NCBI GenBank assembly: GCA_963729715.1
Contig: CAVSPA010000009.1
Location: 1-64,000, forward strand
Length of the DNA stretch: 64,000 nucleotides
Direction: 5' to 3'
Origin: an uncultured delta proteobacterium
Lineage (GTDB): Bacteria; Desulfobacterota; Syntrophia; Syntrophales; UBA2185
Positions within the stretch are counted from its first letter, which is position 1. Each line of letters opens with the position of its first letter. Shown one piece after another: positions 2,210-42,144 of this stretch. A model generated the notes under the pieces. The model had not been told where the DNA came from. It did not search any database and worked only from the letters and a program-made list of their open reading frames with translations. Made by a program: the position numbers and the translations under genes.

Positions 2210-2389
2210 ATGACAAGGATTAAAAAAGGTGAAATACTGGGGTATCAATTTGATACTGAAACCATCTGCAGAGAATGTGCGACACTGGAAGAACTGAAAG
2301 ATTTAACCAGAACTGAGTTACTAACTGCGAAAAGCATCGGTGGGGACCTGGTTTTTTGTGACAGATGCAAAAAACGGATTGAGGGTTGA
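2210..2389 (+). CDS. 59-aa small protein with two CxxC motifs (putative Zn ribbon); absent from ORF track
   Basis: MTRIKKGEILGYQFDTETICRECATLEELKDLTRTELLTAKSIGGDLVFCDRCKKRIEG; GGAGG RBS upstream. Confidence 0.7.
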   Translation: MTRIKKGEILGYQFDTETICRECATLEELKDLTRTELLTAKSIGGDLVFCDRCKKRIEG

Positions 2390-2721
2390 TTCCTGAAGTC
2401 CGGGCTTTTTATGAAAGGGGGAATGATATGAGAAATACTTTTGGTGTTATTCTTGTATTACTCACCTGCTTACTGATATTACCCTGTTCAAAGGATGTGA
2501 ACGGTGCGGATTGGATACGGTTCGGTAAAGGAGAGGGTAGCAATGAACTTTTTTATGACATACAGAGCATAAATTATCTACAAAACAGTTCTGTTCGAGT
2601 ACTTGTTAAAATGATACCGGAGGATGAAGAAAGTCGAGTGAGGGAGAGAGCGGAGTGGCGAAAAGGTTACTCCGAATCTCCGGATAACTTCTCTTACTCA
2701 ACATTCTTATATGAAATTAAT

Positions 2722-3357
2722 TAATCCTGGGTAAACCCCCGGCTCTGCCGGGGGACTCCCAGAGTTTGACAATTCCGGGAATATAAAGGAAACCTCCTAT
2801 CCGTGAACCGTTCGAAGTTTACGGGGAAGGAGGTTTCAGTTGAACGACAGGCAGAGTTTAAGCCATACGTCATGGGAATGCAAGTACCATGTGGTATGGA
2901 TACCGAAGTATCGGAGGAAAGCGATTTACGAGCAACTGCGGAGATATTTGGGGTCAACATTCAGGGACCTCGCGATTCAGAAAGAGAGTCAGGTTATCGA
3001 GGGTCATCTTCGAGTTGATCATGTGCATATGTTGATCTCCATTCCGCCGAAGCATGCGGTAGCGCAAGTGGTTGGTTTCATCAAAGGCAAGAGCGCGATA
3101 CATATTGCGAGAAACTTTATGGGTCATCGCAAGAATTTCACCGGTCAGCACTTTTGGGCCAGAGGTTATGATGTTTCCACCGTTGGCAGAGATGAAGCCA
3201 CCATTCGAGAATACATCAGAAAACAAGAGCAAGAAGACCGGCGTCTCGATCAGCTCAACATGTTTGAGGAGTAACCACCTTCAGGTGGTTCAGTAAATTA
3301 AATCCGCTTTGAGCGGTTCATACATTCAAGCCTCCGGCTTTGCCGGAGGTATATGAC
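2722..3357 (+). mobile_element. IS200/IS605-family element, tnpA only
   Basis: Subterminal hairpins CCCCCGGC-TCT-GCCGGGGG and CCTCCGGC-TTT-GCCGGAGG; ends in TGAC; no target duplication; boundaries set by restoring the interrupted gene. Confidence 0.9.
2840..3274 (+). CDS. tnpA: IS200 Y1 (HUH) transposase
   Basis: CKYHVVWIPKYRRK, DHVHML (HUH), FWARGY, YIRKQ. Confidence 0.96.
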   Translation: MNDRQSLSHTSWECKYHVVWIPKYRRKAIYEQLRRYLGSTFRDLAIQKESQVIEGHLRVDHVHMLISIPPKHAVAQVVGFIKGKSAIHIARNFMGHRKNFTGQHFWARGYDVSTVGRDEATIREYIRKQEQEDRRLDQLNMFEE

Positions 3358-3567
3358 TGCAAAGATAGAACATTTAAGGTTCTTGAAGGAGCAACATACA
3401 ATAAAGAAAATGAAACAATAATTGATACAACTATAGAGTATCCACGTCTTGATAATATTTCTCCCGAATCGATGATGGAAGGGTTATACAAAATTGTATG
3501 TGAAGAGAAAGACTCAAAAAAGAAAGGGTAATGATTAAACAGCGGGTCGGAAACTGACCATTTTCAT

Positions 3568-3768
3568 TTACTGAATCGCCTCTTTCTTTGGATAGAGCCC
3601 GTTATCATCAAGTTCAGATGTGTCTACTTCTTTGGCGGTTTCGTTAAGTGGCGAACAATTGAACCTTTTGATTCTTTCACGGGTTGCCATACGTTTAGAG
3701 CGAATCATTTGGTCGGTGGCTATATCATAGCCTATGAAGTAATATACTGTTGTATTTGGCATGGGCAT
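3568..3768 (-). CDS. Small hypothetical protein (66 aa)
   Basis: AAAGGAG RBS directly before ATG at 3768; convergent on adhesin-like gene. Confidence 0.55.
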   Translation of the reverse strand: MPMPNTTVYYFIGYDIATDQMIRSKRMATRERIKRFNCSPLNETAKEVDTSELDDNGLYPKKEAIQ

Positions 3769-3825
3769 GTCTCCTTTATTTCTTTGAGTCAAGCAGACCG
3801 GTTTCTCCCGATTGAACGTAATAAA

Positions 3826-3861
3826 CAAAAAACCCCGTTCTGATTTCAGAAACGGGGTTTC
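3826..3861 (-). terminator. Rho-independent terminator
   Basis: AACCCCGTT...AACGGGGTT stem followed by TTTTTTGTTT on minus strand. Confidence 0.7.
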
Positions 3862-4132
3862 AATAATCTCTTCATGGCACCCTCACGCAACGTTAAAGGG
3901 TTTATGAAAATTAATCTCTGACGTTACATATAGCGTTTTTGATTATCATGATTCCCACATGAAATCTACAATGAAAATCGAAGATGTGTTCTGGTTTTCA
4001 AACCGCGGGAGAAAAATGAGGGAGAAAAGCTTTCACAAAAAGAAAAAGCCGTCTCAGGAGCCGTCAACTCCTGAAGCGGCAAATCAAGAGTGATTCGATA
4101 ATTTGTAACTACTTAAAATGAAGTAACATTTT

Positions 4133-4187
4133 TGGCGTCCCCACCGGGATTCGAACCCGGGTTACCGGCGTGAAAGGCGCGTGTCCT
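4133..4187 (-). repeat. tRNA-Glu(TTC) 3'-half copy 1 (att-like)
   Basis: Revcomp AGGACACGCGCCTTTCACGCCGGTAACCCGGGTTCGAATCCCGGTGGGGACGCCA: anticodon TTC, T-arm GTTCGAATC, CCA end; no 5' acceptor strand. Confidence 0.9.
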
Positions 4188-4435
4188 GGTTTTAGCTAAT
4201 CCCGAATATTTGCATAATTTCATATATTTCGATATGTTGCAAAAAAGCGTCGTGTAAAATATGGGGTAAATTTTTATGATTTTGCATACCGGGGAAAATA
4301 ATTTTACCCGAAGGTTTACCCCATTTTTTTCAACTCCCTTTCCTCTATGATGGACTGGATTCAGACAAAGAATAACATTATTTTACATGTTTTGTGCCCC
4401 AAAGGCGATTAGGTATTTAATATTGATCAGGACAA
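4188..4435 (+). repeat. Segment left-end sequence, near-identical to 29279-29528
   Basis: Direct alignment by eye; contains GGGGTAAA/TTTACCC repeats. Confidence 0.9.
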
Positions 4436-37208: not shown

Positions 37209-37453
37209 TGCCAGCAGGGTATGTTATTTAAACCCCGGTCAGCTTTCAGTATGCAGCAGGGTGCTGGCTTCCTCCGGAATCACCTGCAGGTTTCAGCGGT
37301 ATTTCCACAGCCGAGGATTACTGGAAGAAACCCTCACATATCCATGAAGAACTCCAGTTATTGATAAGAGGAAGCAGTCCTCTATATCAGGTCTCAAACC
37401 AACATTTATTATAACCGCAAAGGAAATTCATGTGGCGATCATGCGCTAGTGTC

Positions 37454-37864
37454 TCATGCCAGTCGTTTACCAGCGTCTGGCCCAGGCGCGAGATTATAAA
37501 TCTCTTCAATTTTAAAAATTATCGTGCCTTTGGACTTAAGTGATAATCCAAACTTTGCACTTAATTCATCAATCCATCGGACCGTATCTTCATACCGCTT
37601 GCCGCTGGTTTCTATGGTGACGGTACCTTTCAACTGGTAACCTTCACGTTCTTCCCAATACATCACGGACACCCGAGGATTCGCCTTCATGTTTGCCAGG
37701 GTTTTGTTGAAGTATTGATCAGATATAAGAATGGTTTCAGCATCGATGATTTTTTTTGCTCCAATTGGCACTGCGTTGGGTCTGCCATCTCCGGTTGCCG
37801 TCGCAAGGACTACGTTGCGCACTTTATTGAACAGTTCCTGCATTCTTTCTGTCATTTGAGCCAT
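37454..37864 (-). CDS. Pyridoxamine 5'-phosphate oxidase-like FMN-binding protein
   Basis: LATA...GRPN, KTLANM..NP, GYQLKG. Confidence 0.88.
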   Translation of the reverse strand: MAQMTERMQELFNKVRNVVLATATGDGRPNAVPIGAKKIIDAETILISDQYFNKTLANMKANPRVSVMYWEEREGYQLKGTVTIETSGKRYEDTVRWIDELSAKFGLSLKSKGTIIFKIEEIYNLAPGPDAGKRLA

Positions 37865-37949
37865 CTTGATTATCTCCTATTTTGATTTCTATATTGTTTT
37901 GTCCAGTTTTTTGGGGAGAGGCTCAGATTCCATTTATCGCCTTTTCCCA

Positions 37950-38933
37950 CTATTGAAGCGCCTTTTTGCATAGTTCAGTTATGAATATCGGATTGATTGA
38001 ATCCTCCTTGCAGAGTTTCCGAAGATTGAGATAGCACATGGGGCACAGGAAGACCATGGCATCCGCATTCACTTTTTTTGCATCGTCTATATTCCACTTT
38101 TTCACAATCGCCGCCCGTTCTTTGTCGCGTGCCATGAGTGGGGCACCGCAGCACAGTGCATTTATTCTTTCATACTTCCGTGCTGGCCTCTCCACTCCCA
38201 GGAGTTCGAAAATCTTGTCGAGATAGATATCCTTCCCCTGTGTGTAGCGCGAGGCGCAGGGAGATTGGTAAGCAACGCGGATCGGAACCGCTTTGAGTCG
38301 GCCCTCGCGCTTCTTGAGTTCCCGATAGAGGTATTCAAAGATATGGACAGGCTGGAAGGGCACTTTCAAGCCATACTCCTGGGCCAGCGTGGTCAGCATT
38401 GTATAACAGTCGTCGTGGAAACAGATAACTTCTTTAGCTTCCAAGGCGGCGAGCTTCTCAATGAACCTCTTTGCCTCCTTCTTAGCGGAGCTCGGTTTCC
38501 CGAGGTGAATATGTCCAACGGTACAGAAATAGTCCGCACCTTCGACAATCGTCAAATCATCGAAAAGAGGATTGTCCAGAAGTTCACGGACCATATCTCC
38601 CACGATGCACAGATTCAGCACGGGTTTCCCCTCTTTGCCTTTTTTTACGACGGTCGGAAGATTATAGAGCTTAGCGAAGTTCTGCATGGCTTGTTCGGGA
38701 ATGCCGAGGGCACCCGTTTCTTCCTGTCGCTGGTTAAGCAAATCGAATGGATTGGCCTGGGTCGGGCAGACTAAATTGCACGATGCGCAAGTGACGCATA
38801 GACCCACAATCGGCGGTGTTCCTCCCGATACAAGCTCCTTCATTTCCTCCTGAGCCCGATTGAGGTCGTATTCCACATAAGGACAAAACTCCAAGCACTT
38901 TCCACATAAATTGCATTTTTCTTGGTAAAACAA
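37950..38933 (-). CDS. Fe-S protein with 2x[4Fe-4S] and CCG domain (HdrD-like)
   Basis: CNLCGKCLEFCP, CVTCASCNLVCP, PC...CCG...CPMC. Confidence 0.88.
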   Translation of the reverse strand: MFYQEKCNLCGKCLEFCPYVEYDLNRAQEEMKELVSGGTPPIVGLCVTCASCNLVCPTQANPFDLLNQRQEETGALGIPEQAMQNFAKLYNLPTVVKKGKEGKPVLNLCIVGDMVRELLDNPLFDDLTIVEGADYFCTVGHIHLGKPSSAKKEAKRFIEKLAALEAKEVICFHDDCYTMLTTLAQEYGLKVPFQPVHIFEYLYRELKKREGRLKAVPIRVAYQSPCASRYTQGKDIYLDKIFELLGVERPARKYERINALCCGAPLMARDKERAAIVKKWNIDDAKKVNADAMVFLCPMCYLNLRKLCKEDSINPIFITELCKKALQ

Positions 38934-39026
38934 TGATTCCTCCTTGGGTTTTATATTTGGCCGTTTATGTCAGCGTGCTTTCTTACCACAATTCAAAGAT
39001 AGGGTCCTTCGATATCACAATTTTCA

Positions 39027-39097
39027 AGGAAATAACATTAATGATTACAGTTTGAAGTGTCGTATCATCATCGAGATTGATGACTTGCAGATAACAG
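39027..39097 (+). repeat. 71-bp direct repeat, copy 1 (left of IS110)
   Basis: Identical to 40528-40598. Confidence 0.95.
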
Positions 39098-39187
39098 ACC
39101 TTATGATAAAAAAGTAAAAGGCAAGTCTCAACCTTGCATGGTATATTTTGTTTGCCACAACAAAAACATACCCAAAGGAGGCTTGCC

Positions 39188-40246
39188 ATGGTTAAAGGTA
39201 ACAAACTTGATTTCACCGGTCAACACATTTACGTCGGTATGGACATTCACAAAAAGAGCTGGAGCGTCAGCATTCATAATGAACACTTTGAACACAAAAC
39301 CTTTACCCAACCGCCCGAGGTTAAGAAACTGGTATATTATTTACAAAGAAACTTTCCAGGTGCCACCTATCATTCCGTATATGAAGCCGGTTTCAGTGGT
39401 TTCTGGATCCATGACCAGCTAACTCAAGAAGGAATCCATTCCATGGTAGTCAATCCCGCCGATGTCCCGACAAAGCATAAGGAGAAAGCCGGCAAGGCCG
39501 ACAAGGTGGATTGCCGGAAGCTGGGCAGGAGCCTCCGCAGCGGCGACATCAAAGGCATTTACGTTCCTTCCAGGACAGAAGTGGAAGACCGTCACCTGAT
39601 ACGCACCCGCCAGGGCATGGTGAAGAAACAGACGCGGTGCAAGAACCAGATCAAAGCGATTCTCTTTTTTTACGGCATCGCGCTTCCCGAAGAGGGAAAC
39701 TGGTCCAGGAACTTCATCAACCGATTAGATGCTGTCCAAATGGAAAAAGCCAGCGGAGATATTACCCTCAAAGCCCATCTGGAAGAACTGAAGCACCTTA
39801 GACAGATCATCGCCGGTCTCAACAAAGCCATCCTCGCCTTGTCCAGATCCGATACATACAGGGATAAGGTCCTTCTCCTTAGGTCCGTGCCGGGCATCAG
39901 TACCCTCACGGCAATGACGTTACTGACAGAGCTATGTGACATTACCCGGTTTCCATCCATCGACAAGCTTGCCAGCTATACGGGATTGGTTCCCGATATA
40001 AAGTCAAGCGGCGAGACGGCATACACGGCGGGTATCACCCACCGCAGGAATCCCATATTAAGGACCGTGCTCATCGAGGCCTCCTGGGTGGCAGTGCGGA
40101 AAGACCCGGCATTGATGATGGCCTTCCATAAGTTCTCCCTCCGGATGAAAAAGACGGTAGCCATCGTCCACATCGCCAGGAAGCTTTTGAACCGTATCCG
40201 TTTCGTCCTTATGAACCATGAGCAATATGTACCGGCTGTCGTTTAA
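39188..40246 (+). CDS. IS110-family DEDD recombinase
   Basis: VGMDIHK, YEAG, KADKVD, VPGI, YTGLVP...SSG; AAGGAGG RBS. Confidence 0.95.
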   Translation: MVKGNKLDFTGQHIYVGMDIHKKSWSVSIHNEHFEHKTFTQPPEVKKLVYYLQRNFPGATYHSVYEAGFSGFWIHDQLTQEGIHSMVVNPADVPTKHKEKAGKADKVDCRKLGRSLRSGDIKGIYVPSRTEVEDRHLIRTRQGMVKKQTRCKNQIKAILFFYGIALPEEGNWSRNFINRLDAVQMEKASGDITLKAHLEELKHLRQIIAGLNKAILALSRSDTYRDKVLLLRSVPGISTLTAMTLLTELCDITRFPSIDKLASYTGLVPDIKSSGETAYTAGITHRRNPILRTVLIEASWVAVRKDPALMMAFHKFSLRMKKTVAIVHIARKLLNRIRFVLMNHEQYVPAVV

Positions 40247-40500
40247 TTATAAAAAGAACAGGAGCGTATGAAGACAATCTGAAAAATCTTATTTCGTGGG
40301 CAACGGATACTAACTTCCTGCAGCTGATATAAGAATCATGCCTGCTCATTACAGACTACGTGCCCACACATTAAAACCTGACAAAGATAATGCAGCGATC
40401 CCTCAGCGATCTGTCTGCTGATAGGAGAATGCTTTTTGAAGATTGTGCTTACATACACAAAAAATTCAAAAGAACAAAAACTTCCGTCACCCTATGAGTA
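40247..40500 (+). ncRNA. Candidate bridge/seekRNA in long 3' non-coding end
   Basis: GTGGGCA/TGCCCAC stem enclosing CTTCCTG and ATTACAG segments that match the insertion site. Confidence 0.6.
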
Positions 40501-40527
40501 AACAAGAGACTTGCTTTTTTACATAGG

Positions 40528-40598
40528 AGGAAATAACATTAATGATTACAGTTTGAAGTGTCGTATCATCATCGAGATTGATGACTTGCAGATAACAG
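40528..40598 (+). repeat. 71-bp direct repeat, copy 2 (right of IS110)
   Basis: Identical to 39027-39097. Confidence 0.95.
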
Positions 40599-40764
40599 GA
40601 AGATAGCCGGATTCTAAATGAACAGAAAATGAACTGTCTCGCCGTTGCATGTTTCATCTCGCATTCAACGAGCTGCTCTGACAAAACGACCTGCGACTTG
40701 TATTTGTTAGAGAGTAAATAAAAAAATCAGCAGGCAGCTAACGGCGACCCGCAGGAGTGGTTCA

Positions 40765-41175
40765 TCATCTCTTCTGTAAATGTCTTTTGATAAATTCATG
40801 CGGTTTGAGGACTTCTATGCCTTGGTATCCGGAGACCTTCAGCAGATGCTTATCACCGCTAACGATAATCCTGCTTCCACTGGCTATAGCACAGGCAAGA
40901 AATTTGTCATCATCAGCGTCAGTGCACACGGGTTTGGGGAGGTCTTGAGTCTGATACAATTCAGCCTCAATAGTTACCAGATCAAGAATAGGTCTCAAGT
41001 CAATTGAAGGGAATCGCTCGGCAATTGCTTCTCCCACTCTCCAGTATTCTTTAAGTATCTCTTGAGAAATTGCCAATTGAATTTTGCCGTCACGCCATGC
41101 ATTAAGAATTTGATGTGGTGGTCCACTGAAAAAGACTCCGGAAATGAAAACATTCGTATCGACGATAACCTTCAC
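40765..41175 (-). CDS. PIN-domain toxin
   Basis: VIVDTNV, DADDDKFLACA, IVSGDKHLL. Confidence 0.92.
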   Translation of the reverse strand: MKVIVDTNVFISGVFFSGPPHQILNAWRDGKIQLAISQEILKEYWRVGEAIAERFPSIDLRPILDLVTIEAELYQTQDLPKPVCTDADDDKFLACAIASGSRIIVSGDKHLLKVSGYQGIEVLKPHEFIKRHLQKR

Positions 41176-41435
41176 TTGCGACCTCGTGCCTTTGCTATCG
41201 CATCATAGATGTCGGATCTTTTCAATCCAGCCTTTTTTGCTTGCTTGCGGGCTTCAGCAATCAGTTTGTCAAATTCTTCCATGGATGGTTGGGAAAGGGA
41301 TTTGAATATTACCACATCTTTTTCTCCTACAACGACAAATTGCGCGCCAACCTTTAGGTTGAGTCGTTTACGTATATCCTCAGGGATGACTACTTGCCCC
41401 TTGGAGGACATTTTTGTGGTTGCCAATGTTGCCAT
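41172..41435 (-). CDS. AbrB/MazE-type antitoxin
   Basis: SSKGQVVIPEDIRKRL; 4-bp overlap with PIN gene. Confidence 0.92.
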   Translation of the reverse strand: MATLATTKMSSKGQVVIPEDIRKRLNLKVGAQFVVVGEKDVVIFKSLSQPSMEEFDKLIAEARKQAKKAGLKRSDIYDAIAKARGRK

Positions 41436-41570
41436 TATAAATCCTCCTAAATTATTTTCTTACTGGTAAGATTTTAGTATAAGTAATTTGATTTGGCAAG
41501 CCATAAATTTGGTATGCTGTTTTATTTAGATCCGTGGTTCTATCTTTTTTATGGTTCTGGAACTCGATTT

Positions 41571-41882
41571 TCAATCCAGAATTTTTGATCTCAGCAGCTT
41601 TTTCAAAGTTTCATATACGTCTATCTTTGATCCCTCTTTACGTATACCTATGCCGATGACAATAACCGTCACTGTTTTTACTTTCACTTCGTACACAATC
41701 CTGTAGCGGCTCGCGGCATGAATGCTGCGATACCCAGCAAGATTACCAGACAACGCTTTTCCTATTTTGTCAGGTGATTCTTTCAGGGTTTCGATCTTGC
41801 GGCCTATTGCGGTTTTTGCTCTGCCATCCAGGGATCTCAGGTACGCTTTCGCCTCGTCAGTCAGGGTAATTTTATAATTCAA
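41571..41882 (-). CDS. RelE/ParE-family toxin
   Basis: GKALSGNLAGYRS...RYRIVY...IGIR. Confidence 0.9.
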   Translation of the reverse strand: MNYKITLTDEAKAYLRSLDGRAKTAIGRKIETLKESPDKIGKALSGNLAGYRSIHAASRYRIVYEVKVKTVTVIVIGIGIRKEGSKIDVYETLKKLLRSKILD

Positions 41883-42144
41883 TGCCGAGCTCCTGCTTCA
41901 CCTTTTCCCAGTCGGTGACTTTGCCAGATTTAATATCCTGCACGCCCCTTTTAAATGCCTTCATCATGTCCGGATCTCCCAGAATCGCAATTGTTTCGTT
42001 CAGCGACTCATACAGTTCCCAAGGCATGAGTGCAAATACCTGCTTCCCACGAGAAGTTATTGATACTGTCTCGTCCGGCCCCATCTCTTTATGCAATTCA
42101 TTCAATTTTCGCCTTGCTTCGGATATTTGAATTTGCCTGATCAC
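41872..42144 (-). CDS. Phd/YefM-family antitoxin
   Basis: ISEARRKL...ITSRGK...YESLNETIAIL. Confidence 0.9.
   Translation of the reverse strand: MIRQIQISEARRKLNELHKEMGPDETVSITSRGKQVFALMPWELYESLNETIAILGDPDMMKAFKRGVQDIKSGKVTDWEKVKQELGIEL

Follow-up and report, generated by a model that had tools for sequence, protein, structure and literature searches.

The insertion sequence and its flanking duplication

Within the stretch of DNA analysed here (the window, 64,000 nucleotides), a 1430-bp insertion sequence (IS) of the IS110 family lies to the right of a leftward-read Fe-S protein gene and is enclosed by two copies of a 71-nt sequence. The copies, detected by a repeat search of the window as assembled, are 100% identical and offset by 1501, and each begins and ends with AG; a chance origin of a perfect match of this length is negligible. 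The locus comprises the following features.

37950..38933, minus strand: left neighbour gene, encoding an Fe-S protein with 4Fe-4S dicluster and cysteine-rich CCG domains
39011..39097, strand not assigned: conserved host intergenic element of approximately 86 bp, a complete copy, which contains site 1 and, of site 2, the left half
39021..39036, plus strand: site 1, intact, on the left; AG core at 39027-39028, followed by GAAATAAC
39027..39097, plus strand: left 71-bp copy, host DNA; in the IS-free orthologue L054 it runs on unbroken from the left flank
39090..39105, plus strand: left junction, at which the IS left end follows the left half of site 2 and its AG core
39098..40527, plus strand: IS110-family, IS1111-type insertion sequence, 1430 bp, its ends placed by loss of similarity
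40521..40537, plus strand: right junction, unusual in that the IS right end is followed by the AG core and right half belonging to site 1
40528..40598, plus strand: right 71-bp copy, from the repeat search
40591..40606, plus strand: site 2, intact and unoccupied, at the end of the right 71-bp copy

An earlier reading made from the letters alone (the sequence-only reading) had described a perfect 71-bp duplication flanking an IS110 element with AG at both borders, which the repeat search confirmed, and the two sites that it wrote out are those at 39021-39036 and 40591-40606. Its spacing of 69 bp for these sites is corrected here, the two AG cores that bound the duplication lying 71 bp apart from start to start. 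The right half of site 1 is the sequence that now stands directly after the IS right end, and the left type of junction is also present in another genome (G006:C68, locus L010).

Ends, transposase and classification of the element

Relatives of the IS in other genomes, 73-100% identical to it, align from base 1 to base 1430, and their similarity ends exactly at 39098 and 40527. The two ends are set by the junctions of such relatives (10 distinct on the left, 8 distinct on the right) and by further copies, and since the related copies end exactly at these positions the 71 bp must be host DNA that lies outside the element. The IS is single-copy in its own genome, but a copy identical at 1430/1430 bases occupies a different site elsewhere (L046), and contigs from public runs (X1, X2, and X4) hold an identical IS with other flanks directly at its ends. 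Because both 71-bp copies are identical to each other and the IS is identical to these copies elsewhere, the insertion is likely to be recent. Judged by its sequence, the window copy belongs to the IS1111 type within the IS110 family and is intact and apparently recently active. The internal features are as follows.

39116..39129, plus strand: left subterminal inverted repeat, 14 nt, 93% complementary to its partner and 18 nt inside the left end
39188..40246, plus strand: transposase/recombinase gene, one intact ORF of 352 aa, with the motif GL-P----SG present as GLVPDIKSSG
40247..40527, plus strand: 3′ non-coding region, 281 bp as against 90 bp upstream of the gene, encoding a predicted guide (seek/bridge) RNA
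40506..40519, plus strand: right subterminal inverted repeat, partner of 39116-39129, 8 nt inside the right end

The assignment to the RNA-guided IS110 family, as the sequence-only reading had it, is borne out by three matches of the transposase, to Pfam PF01548 (DEDD_Tnp_IS110, 1.3e-12, residues 16-159), to PF02371 (Transposase_20, 2e-20, residues 230-312) and to NCBIfam NF033542 ("IS110 family RNA-guided transposase"), the last with 207 bits against a cut-off of 140 and covering positions 1-342 of 343. The longer non-coding region downstream of the gene, the subterminal inverted repeats and the GL-P----S(t)G motif are all traits of the IS1111 group, for which the downstream non-coding region and the GL-P----SG motif are among the criteria given in section 6 of PMC11187229; at 352 aa the transposase is two residues above the IS1111 range of approximately 330-350 aa. 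The nearest plasmid-borne proteins, which are annotated only as IS110 family, are approximately 31-39% identical to it, no named IS matching the transposase was found, and a PDB sequence search returned no match at E values up to 0.001.

As in the IS110 family generally, classical inverted repeats are absent from the tips of the element and only a short core is repeated, the window copy being the exception in the latter respect. AG stands to the left of the IS in 10/10 distinct left junctions and to the right of it in 5/8 distinct right junctions, and is also found at seven further copies of the IS.

The host locus and its IS-free allele

The left neighbour gene matches Pfam CCG (3.9e-9) and several Fer4 families, and its upstream region runs into the 86-bp element. 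The block containing this gene has a paralogue on contig C18 with 94-95% identity, and the similarity stops at 38997. The 86-bp element itself has 26 aligned members in three genera of the same family, and in all eight members of its own genome a leftward gene begins 62-250 bp away, so that the element may be promoter-like when read leftwards. A promoter scan found four sigma-70-like sites where 3.2 were expected, which is not above chance, and two of the four are hybrids of flank and IS. The family of repeats in the right flank yielded a consensus RNA structure on neither strand. An Rfam scan of 38000-41500, at E values up to 5, gave three snoRNA or lncRNA matches at chance level and none to either the IS non-coding region or the host elements.

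It had been foreseen that an empty allele might already carry the duplication. The only IS-free orthologous allele found, on a metagenome contig (L054; 93.1% identical over 1735 bp), carries the 71 bp once and not in tandem. It was detected only by a metagenome scan, the same-genus and same-family genomes having yielded no orthologous empty allele. As the 71 bp are continuous with the left flank in this IS-free allele and form part of the 26-member element family, they can be assigned to host DNA on these grounds also.

Other copies of the insertion sequence

The expectation that IS110-type copies normally leave no more than a short core repeat agrees with 9 of the 10 distinct copies for which both flanks are visible; a long flanking repeat is absent from these nine, and the window copy is the sole case that has one. 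Staggered cleavage would leave a duplication of constant length at every insertion; here a long duplication is found at 1/10 copies. For this kind of element the long flanking duplication is a rare by-product. Site 2 is recurrently used: in G006:C68, site 2 of another member of the element family is occupied by a related IS (87% identical), there without duplication. The genomes and contigs examined yielded no reciprocal product, no insertion at site 1 only and no intermediate. The other close direct repeats of this genome that were examined are all paralogous gene segments, and none of them brackets an IS.

The predicted guide RNA and its match to the two sites

A consensus fold of eight copies of the 3′ non-coding region (-31.0 kcal/mol) allowed candidate guide segments to be located.

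40296..40367, plus strand: predicted target-binding loop, with an outer stem (40296-40305 and 40359-40367) and an inner hairpin (40320-40345)
40309..40319, plus strand: predicted right-target guide, 5′ in the loop, with complementarity to the right flank (top strand), core included
40347..40354, plus strand: predicted left-target guide, on the 3′ side of the loop, in the same sense as the left flank and core
40421..40428, plus strand: candidate left-donor guide, on the 3′ side of the second loop, in the same sense as the IS right end, the AG core and the first base of the left end

The predicted order, in which a segment complementary to the top strand lies 5′ of one complementary to the bottom strand and the two overlap at the core, fits the IS1111 seekRNA as set out in section 9 of PMC11187229. 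The sequences of the guide loop co-vary with the flanks. The right guide has at least 9/12 matches to its own flank in 8/16 copies, whereas cross pairs between the guide of one copy and the flanks of others reach at least 9/12 in only 1/216. In a permutation test of right guide against flank, p = 0.016 was obtained in strict register and 0/20000 shuffles did as well with a register tolerance of 1, whereas the first nine copies (the near clade) taken alone gave p = 0.26. The guide analysis is noisy: extraction of guides anchored on the alignment mis-anchors four far-clade copies, and the guides of L012, L028, and L013 match their own flanks poorly. The left guide matches the left flank at 8/8 positions in the identical copy L046 and in L068/L076. 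The candidate left-donor guide changes together with the tip of the right end and is concordant in 16/16 copies, but these fall into two clades only, so the co-change is probably one evolutionary event. On the 5′ side of the second loop, inspection by eye found no segment complementary to the IS left end that might serve as a right-donor guide.

That the duplication is bounded by two target-like sites, as had been proposed, holds in so far as both resemble the target by guide match. Site 2 matches the left guide at 6/8 and the right guide at 9/11 positions (9/12 over 12 positions); for site 1 the figures are 4/8 and 7/11 (7/12 over 12 positions). Site 2 is thus the better-matched site on both halves, and site 1 matches mainly via the core and the right half. 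The location of the guides, and this difference between the sites, in which site 2 is better matched and site 1 chiefly by its right half, are new here. The right-half match of site 1 (7/11) is not much above the mean of the cross pairs (approximately 5/12), and because an AGGAA should turn up by chance roughly once in every kb of each strand, finding a look-alike site less than 100 bp away is unremarkable in itself. Natural insertions at half-matching sites are present in this IS group, namely L046 (left 8/8, right 4/12), L077 (right 9/12, left 3/8) and L067 (left 7/8, right 7/12).

Origin of the duplication

The duplication probably results from the action of the IS itself on two sites that resemble its target and lie 71 bp apart, with site 2 supplying the left junction and the half-matching site 1 the right junction. 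Among the routes that this would allow, tentative preference is given to a single-junction, RNA-guided exchange on an IS-free sister chromosome. The IS would first enter site 2 of one sister; on the other sister, still IS-free, the recombinase-RNA complex would then recombine the right half of site 1 with the right-end junction, a transfer of the right end to a new right target at a half-matching site. The products would be the arrangement L-71-IS-71-R, formed directly, and a reciprocal 71-bp deletion, since lost. Routes in which both sisters carry the IS at the outset predict that another IS follows the second 71-bp copy on its right; as it is absent, the event probably took place at or near the first insertion into the empty locus. 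The route is inferred; the ends of the IS, its guides, the scores of their matches, the empty allele with one copy and the scarcity of such duplications are shown. Recombination at half-matching sites has been reported for IS110-family elements in one preprint (bioRxiv 10.64898/2026.08.31.748434), and in another (bioRxiv 10.1101/2025.10.25.684509) the right-end junction is reported to be transferred onto a new right target; as far as these sources extend, half-site reactions are known solely from unreviewed preprints on IS110-type elements (IS621 and CazIS110-1), not IS1111-type. It is possible but doubtful that an IS1111-type recombinase left this locus as the natural trace of an RNA-guided strand exchange at a single junction, the right-end junction having passed from the programmed site to a half-matching one on an IS-free sister duplex.

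The same two sites could have been joined by a more conventional route, itself a form of IS activity, in which two complete insertions, at site 2 and at site 1, arose in two chromosome copies or strains and were followed by a RecA crossover within the 1.43-kb IS, which would link the left part of the site-2 copy with the right part of the site-1 copy and give L-71-IS-71-R and L-IS-R. Such a history, which is rather unlikely, would make new biochemistry unnecessary and would agree with the target-like character of both sites, with the complete insertions at poorly or half-matching sites known in this IS group (L046, L067, and L077), and with the tandem segment duplications that IS110-family elements border in the case of ISPpu10, as presented in bioRxiv 10.64898/2026.03.19.712850. 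It requires, however, two independent insertions 71 bp apart to coexist in a cell or population, in addition to the crossover, and an insertion at site 1 is seen in none of the 26 aligned family members nor elsewhere; the left half of site 1 matches the guide at just 4/8 positions, and the IS is single-copy in its own genome. The present data are compatible with either single-junction exchange or two insertions followed by homologous recombination.

Alternatively, replication slippage or unequal exchange might have come first, generating a tandem 71-bp unit whose new junction consists of the left half of site 2 with the core and the right half of site 1, and the IS might then have inserted there in the ordinary way. 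The 5-nt microhomology (AGGAA) at both borders of the 71 bp, which has a similar continuation and is conserved in the element family, would lend itself to such an event, short tandem repeats occur at other places in this genome, and the new junction would have retained a well-matching left half and core. The sole IS-free orthologue is nevertheless single-copy and the tandem unit occurs in 0/25 other aligned family members. The IS would also have taken the poorer right half (7/11) while site 2 (9/11), 71 bp away, was still empty, and random slippage at the only target occupied by a single-copy IS would be a large coincidence, a point that is argued rather than computed. This sequence of events is improbable.

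An assembly chimera is likewise improbable. In this reading the sample contains two alleles, which differ in whether the IS occupies site 2 or site 1, and the assembler ran a single path through both, so that no one molecule would have two 71-bp copies. Mixed strains are conceivable in an assembly of 19 contigs with an estimated contamination of 6.48%. Against this, near-identical repeats of 1.7-2.6 kb are resolved inside large contigs, including three tandem copies on C3, and a megablast comparison gave 168 rows with a length of 1 kb or more and an identity of at least 97% (pairs are listed in both directions, so the distinct pairs are fewer); the resolution of such repeats suggests that the reads were long and able to span the 1.5-kb structure. 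Contigs of the public runs, four in all, contain the IS but cover neither the border of left flank and 71 bp nor that of 71 bp and right flank, an absence that carries no weight either way. Moreover, a left junction at site 1 is absent from the assembly, as is a right junction at site 2, and even a chimera would leave site 1 as a site used by the IS.

A last candidate, that the 71 bp belong to the element as long terminal direct repeats or as part of a mobile 1501-bp unit, recalls the modular circles with extra DNA reported for ISPpu9 (PMC12288879) but can be set aside, given that relatives, as well as L046 and the copies in runs X1, X2, and X4, end at 39098 and 40527 with unrelated flanks and that the 71 bp occur without the IS in L054 and in members of the element family.

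Significance

The observation is a single case and of moderate interest. IS110/IS1111 elements are under development as programmable recombinases and their side reactions are actively studied; half-match recombination, top-strand-only transfer and direct junction transfer have so far been described mainly in preprints, from test-tube and plasmid assays. Should single-junction exchange be the true origin, seek/bridge-RNA recombinases would be able on their own to duplicate in tandem, and reciprocally to delete, the local DNA that separates a target from a pseudo-target nearby. Partial reactions would then leave heritable products, the elements duplicating and reciprocally deleting short stretches beside their targets. 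Such an outcome is not described in the relevant parts of the bridge- and seekRNA literature cited here and, if real, would matter for the off-target products of bridge editing. If the classical route, slippage or an assembly error is the true explanation, the locus is an ordinary curiosity. A literature search for long duplications at IS110-family elements gave nothing relevant, which does not show that the outcome is unpublished. The related copies also constitute a small natural set of guide-target pairs, including pairs that match in one arm only.

Comparison with known systems

The locus resembles insertions of DDE transposons in having a direct repeat of target DNA on both sides. Target-site duplications of DDE elements arise by staggered cuts and gap repair and are short, of fixed length and present at every insertion, whereas the length in the window would be set by the spacing of two look-alike sites.

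Closer likenesses are found in the IS1111 group (ISEc11, ISPa11, and ISKpn4; Siddiquee et al., 2024, PMC11187229), with which the window IS shares a DEDD and PF02371 recombinase of approximately 350 aa, a long non-coding region downstream, subterminal inverted repeats, the GL-P----SG motif and the order of the guides, as well as a specific target of which the short core alone is repeated. It differs in that its transposase is approximately 35% identical to the nearest plasmid-borne relatives, and in the 71-bp flanking duplication of the window copy, which does not figure in the account of the group given there.

Another member of the IS110 family, ISPpu10 of Pseudomonas putida, also borders a duplicated segment when inserted in repeated targets (bioRxiv 10.64898/2026.03.19.712850). 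The segments described for ISPpu10 are 120-228 kb long and have the arrangement IS-cargo-IS with at least two copies of the IS, whereas in the window, which has no outer IS, a single IS lies between two copies of 71 bp.

With the bridge RNA of IS621 and other IS110-type elements, the predicted RNA has in common a target loop and, as a candidate, a second loop for the donor, and a core dinucleotide common to donor and target. In those elements the guide is 5′, the core is CT and the guides stand in the reverse order, whereas the window IS has a 3′ guide and an AG core, and the IS110-type papers, in the parts that concern these reactions, assay junction products rather than a flanking duplication in a natural genome. 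The likeness extends to insertions at sites matching one arm only, as reported for IS110-type elements (bioRxiv 10.64898/2026.08.31.748434), and to the hybrid junction between an IS right end and a new right target (bioRxiv 10.1101/2025.10.25.684509), which is exactly the odd junction of the window.

The duplication and the element it brackets

A repeat search of the window found nucleotides 39027-39097 and 40528-40598 (offset 1501 nt) to be identical across 71 nt, each copy starting and ending in AG, with 1430 bp and a single intact open reading frame (39188-40246, 352 aa) between them. The perfect 71-bp repeat around an IS110 element reported in the sequence-only reading is thereby borne out, its coordinates and both site sequences being correct. 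The element is delimited as follows.

39098-40527, + strand: IS element, 1430 bp; similarity of related copies ends there

Alignments of full-length relatives start at base 1 (or 4) and end at base 1430, with unrelated flanks outside. All 10 distinct left junctions read AG followed by ACCTTATGAT, and the eight distinct right junctions read ACATAGG followed by a flank that begins with AG in five, GG in two and TG in one. The genome of the window (19 contigs, 3.76 Mb) has one copy of the IS, and the other IS110-type genes there encode proteins just ~24-25% identical to its transposase; related copies occur in 11 of 61 relatives (this genome counted) and, across the order, in 22 of 339 genomes. 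Another assembly has a copy identical at 1430/1430 bases at a different site, on a contig of 3.4 kb (L046), and identical copies with yet other flanks occur on contigs of public runs. Because relatives end at 39098 and 40527 and identical copies carry other flanks, the IS is, by sequence comparison, evidently bounded at these positions and recently mobile, with the 71 bp outside it. Both flanks are visible for 10 distinct copies, of which only the one in the window has a flanking repeat of >9 nt, in agreement with the earlier premise that IS110 copies normally leave a short core only.

The 352-aa product matches Pfam PF01548 and PF02371 as well as NCBIfam NF033542 'IS110 family RNA-guided transposase' (207 bits, cut-off 140); the nearest plasmid-borne proteins are ~35% identical, and a search of solved structures with the transposase sequence returned no match. 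The non-coding region is 281 bp downstream of the gene vs 90 bp upstream, subterminal inverted repeats of 14 nt (93% complementary) are present, and the translation contains GLVPDIKSSG. A longer downstream non-coding region, subterminal inverted repeats and a GL-P-type motif are traits of the IS1111 group according to Siddiquee et al. (PMC11187229), and the window element, which shares them, appears to belong, as a new member, to the IS1111-type branch of this family.

Elsewhere in the same genome, a run of 522 A (contig 7, 315901-316422) adjoins another IS110-type element (contig 7, ~314275-315795) that has a 99.7% identical copy on contig 5; the run is an oddity of the assembly or else an unusual feature. 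Three head-to-tail copies of a ~1.85-kb repeat, presumably another insertion sequence in tandem, occupy contig 3, 321992-328091; the repeat also occurs elsewhere on contigs 3, 4 and 5.

The 71 bp as host DNA

Over 1735 bp (37363-39097), which take in the left gene, the region upstream of it and the 71 bp, the window has 93.1% identity to a metagenome contig (L054). This allele is without the IS, and comparison with it, a check proposed in the sequence-only reading, found the 71 bp once and not in tandem. Similarity stops ~10 bp right of site 2; from 40609 on, the contig (compared over 2258-4426) has unrelated DNA. Right of the IS, the window encodes a PIN/MazE-type toxin-antitoxin pair (40765-41435; Pfam) and two further small overlapping open reading frames (41571-42144) that look like a putative second pair. 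To the left, an Fe-S/CCG gene with 64 bp upstream (37944-38997) has a 94-95% identical paralogue on contig 18 of the same genome (37332-38385), similarity ending sharply on both sides. The 71 bp belong to a larger repeated element.

39011-39097, no strand assigned: ~86-bp conserved intergenic element containing the 71 bp; 26 members aligned
C6:441696-441750, C15:2493-2546, C12:6159-6212, C6:488837-488890, C7:170484-170550, C4:662437-662486: further copies in the window's own genome (C, contig)
Loci L032-L064: further copies

The 26 aligned members represent three genera belonging to one family, and the two AGGAA sites stand out as conserved in the alignment. Several copies occur per genome, and the adjoining gene is always directed away from the left end, with the leftward gene start 62-250 bp away in 8/8 members of the window's genome. 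Rfam holds no match to the element. Read leftwards, its consensus resembles a sigma-70 promoter that has conserved sequence upstream and in which site 1 would lie in the spacer; the element looks like a promoter/operator common to the genes of a regulon. A promoter scan of the window found sigma-70-like sites not above chance; such sites include two hybrids, at 39080-39107 (-35 in the 71-bp flank, -10 in the IS left end) and 40518-40546 (-35 in the IS right end, -10 in the right 71-bp copy). A second repeat begins directly after the AG of site 2, directly follows the 86-bp element in a related genome (G003, L033), lies right of the IS in another (G006), and gave no consensus RNA structure on either strand.

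40599-40715: second repeat, ~115 bp
C12:23228-23284, C6:484053-484109, C4:687962-688019, C6:492698-492738, C6:15368-15417, C3:317839-317950, C18:45272-45329: its copies in the window's genome

Predicted guides and the two sites

Eight aligned 3' regions of the IS group yield a conserved predicted two-hairpin RNA fold (-31.0 kcal/mol), the first internal loop of which is variable and varies with the flanks.

40309-40319, + strand: right-target guide, 5' side of loop; reverse complement of right flank including core
40347-40354, + strand: left-target guide, 3' side of loop; sense of left flank plus core

With motif-anchored extraction, the guide matches its own right flank at at least 9/12 positions in 8 of 16 copies, and two more (L011, L069) also reach this level once the register is moved 1 nt; the guides of L012, L013 and L028 match their own flanks poorly. 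An independent alignment-anchored extraction, which mis-anchors four far-clade copies, gave a mean of 5.9/12 for own pairs vs 4.9/12 in 216 cross pairs (permutation p = 0.016) and, at a register tolerance of 1, 7.6 vs 5.7 (observed sum attained in 0 of 20000 shuffles); a permutation restricted to nine copies gave p = 0.26. The right junction is one base off the guide register in L011 and L012, where the flank begins GG, and in L069, where the right end is 1 base short, which points to an occasional slip by one base or a mismatched core during insertion. The 3' side of the second loop equals the right-end tip, AG and base 1 of the left end, and differs in step with the tip in two clades (ACATAGG with ATAGGAGA, ACATAGA with ATAGAAGA; concordant in 16/16 copies), probably as one evolutionary event. 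No guide for the IS left end was found in the 3' region fold. The guide order, as read from sequence, is that reported for IS1111 seekRNAs (PMC11187229).

40591-40606: site 2 (left half also at 39090-39097); right half vs guide 9/11, left half 6/8
39021-39036: site 1 (AG core 39027-39028); right half vs guide 7/11, left half 4/8

The left junction uses site 2 and the right junction the right half of site 1, and an intact site 2 is still present at 40591-40606. On contig 68 of G006, a related IS (87% identical) lies in site 2 of another member of the 86-bp family with only AG flanking, its right guide matching the right flank at 9/9 consecutive bases. One-arm insertions also occur in the group (L046, left 8/8 and right 4/12; L077, right 9/12 and left 3/8; a weaker case, L067, left 7/8 and right 7/12), the identical copy in L046 showing that the window IS can apparently also insert at sites that fit one arm only.

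Origin of the duplication

The borders of the duplication coincide exactly with the IS tips and the two AG cores, which makes an origin through the IS much more probable than a repair error unrelated to it. One possible route, advanced tentatively, is a single-junction exchange from a single-copy target: the IS would enter site 2 on one of two sister duplexes, and its right-end junction would then be exchanged with site 1 on the still-empty sister, giving left flank, 71 bp, IS, 71 bp and right flank. A 'right end to new right target' reaction of CazIS110-1 and recombination of IS621 where one arm plus core match are reported in two preprints (bioRxiv 10.1101/2025.10.25.684509 and 10.64898/2026.08.31.748434), both from a different subgroup than the window IS. 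A 2026 Nature paper (PMC13626964) states that the substrates of excision are bound across the two loops of the RNA, which fits hybrid junctions as normal substrates.

The same arrangement would also arise from a single-copy target if separate chromosome copies took up complete insertions at sites 1 and 2 and a homologous crossover inside the IS then joined them, a route only a little less probable. No site-1 insertion occurs anywhere in the data and the site 1 match is one-armed; these points, together with the preprint biochemistry of the other subgroup, lead us to a weak preference for the single-junction exchange. Two IS-bearing sisters as the start would, by either route, leave a second IS right of the second 71-bp copy; because none is present there, we place the event at first colonisation of the locus.

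Slippage through AGGAA microhomology could have produced a tandem 71-bp duplication first, with ordinary insertion in the new junction, but the IS-free allele is single-copy, 25 other members of the 86-bp family are without a tandem unit and the better-matching site 2 is still empty, making this order improbable. An assembly chimera of two alleles is slightly less probable still; many near-identical 1.7-2.6-kb repeats are resolved within large contigs, which suggests long reads. The remaining probability falls to routes so far unconsidered.

Comparison with known systems

The duplication is confirmed in the assembly, and the proposal that it arose from two target-like sites is plausible, supported by the guide matches and the empty allele. 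In the available portions of the literature on IS110-family duplications, no case was found of one IS lying between the copies of a short duplication whose extent is set by two look-alike sites. IS110-family elements bordering duplicated segments are known at the 100-kb scale from a preprint on ISPpu10 (bioRxiv 10.64898/2026.03.19.712850), whereas in the window one IS is bracketed by 71 bp.
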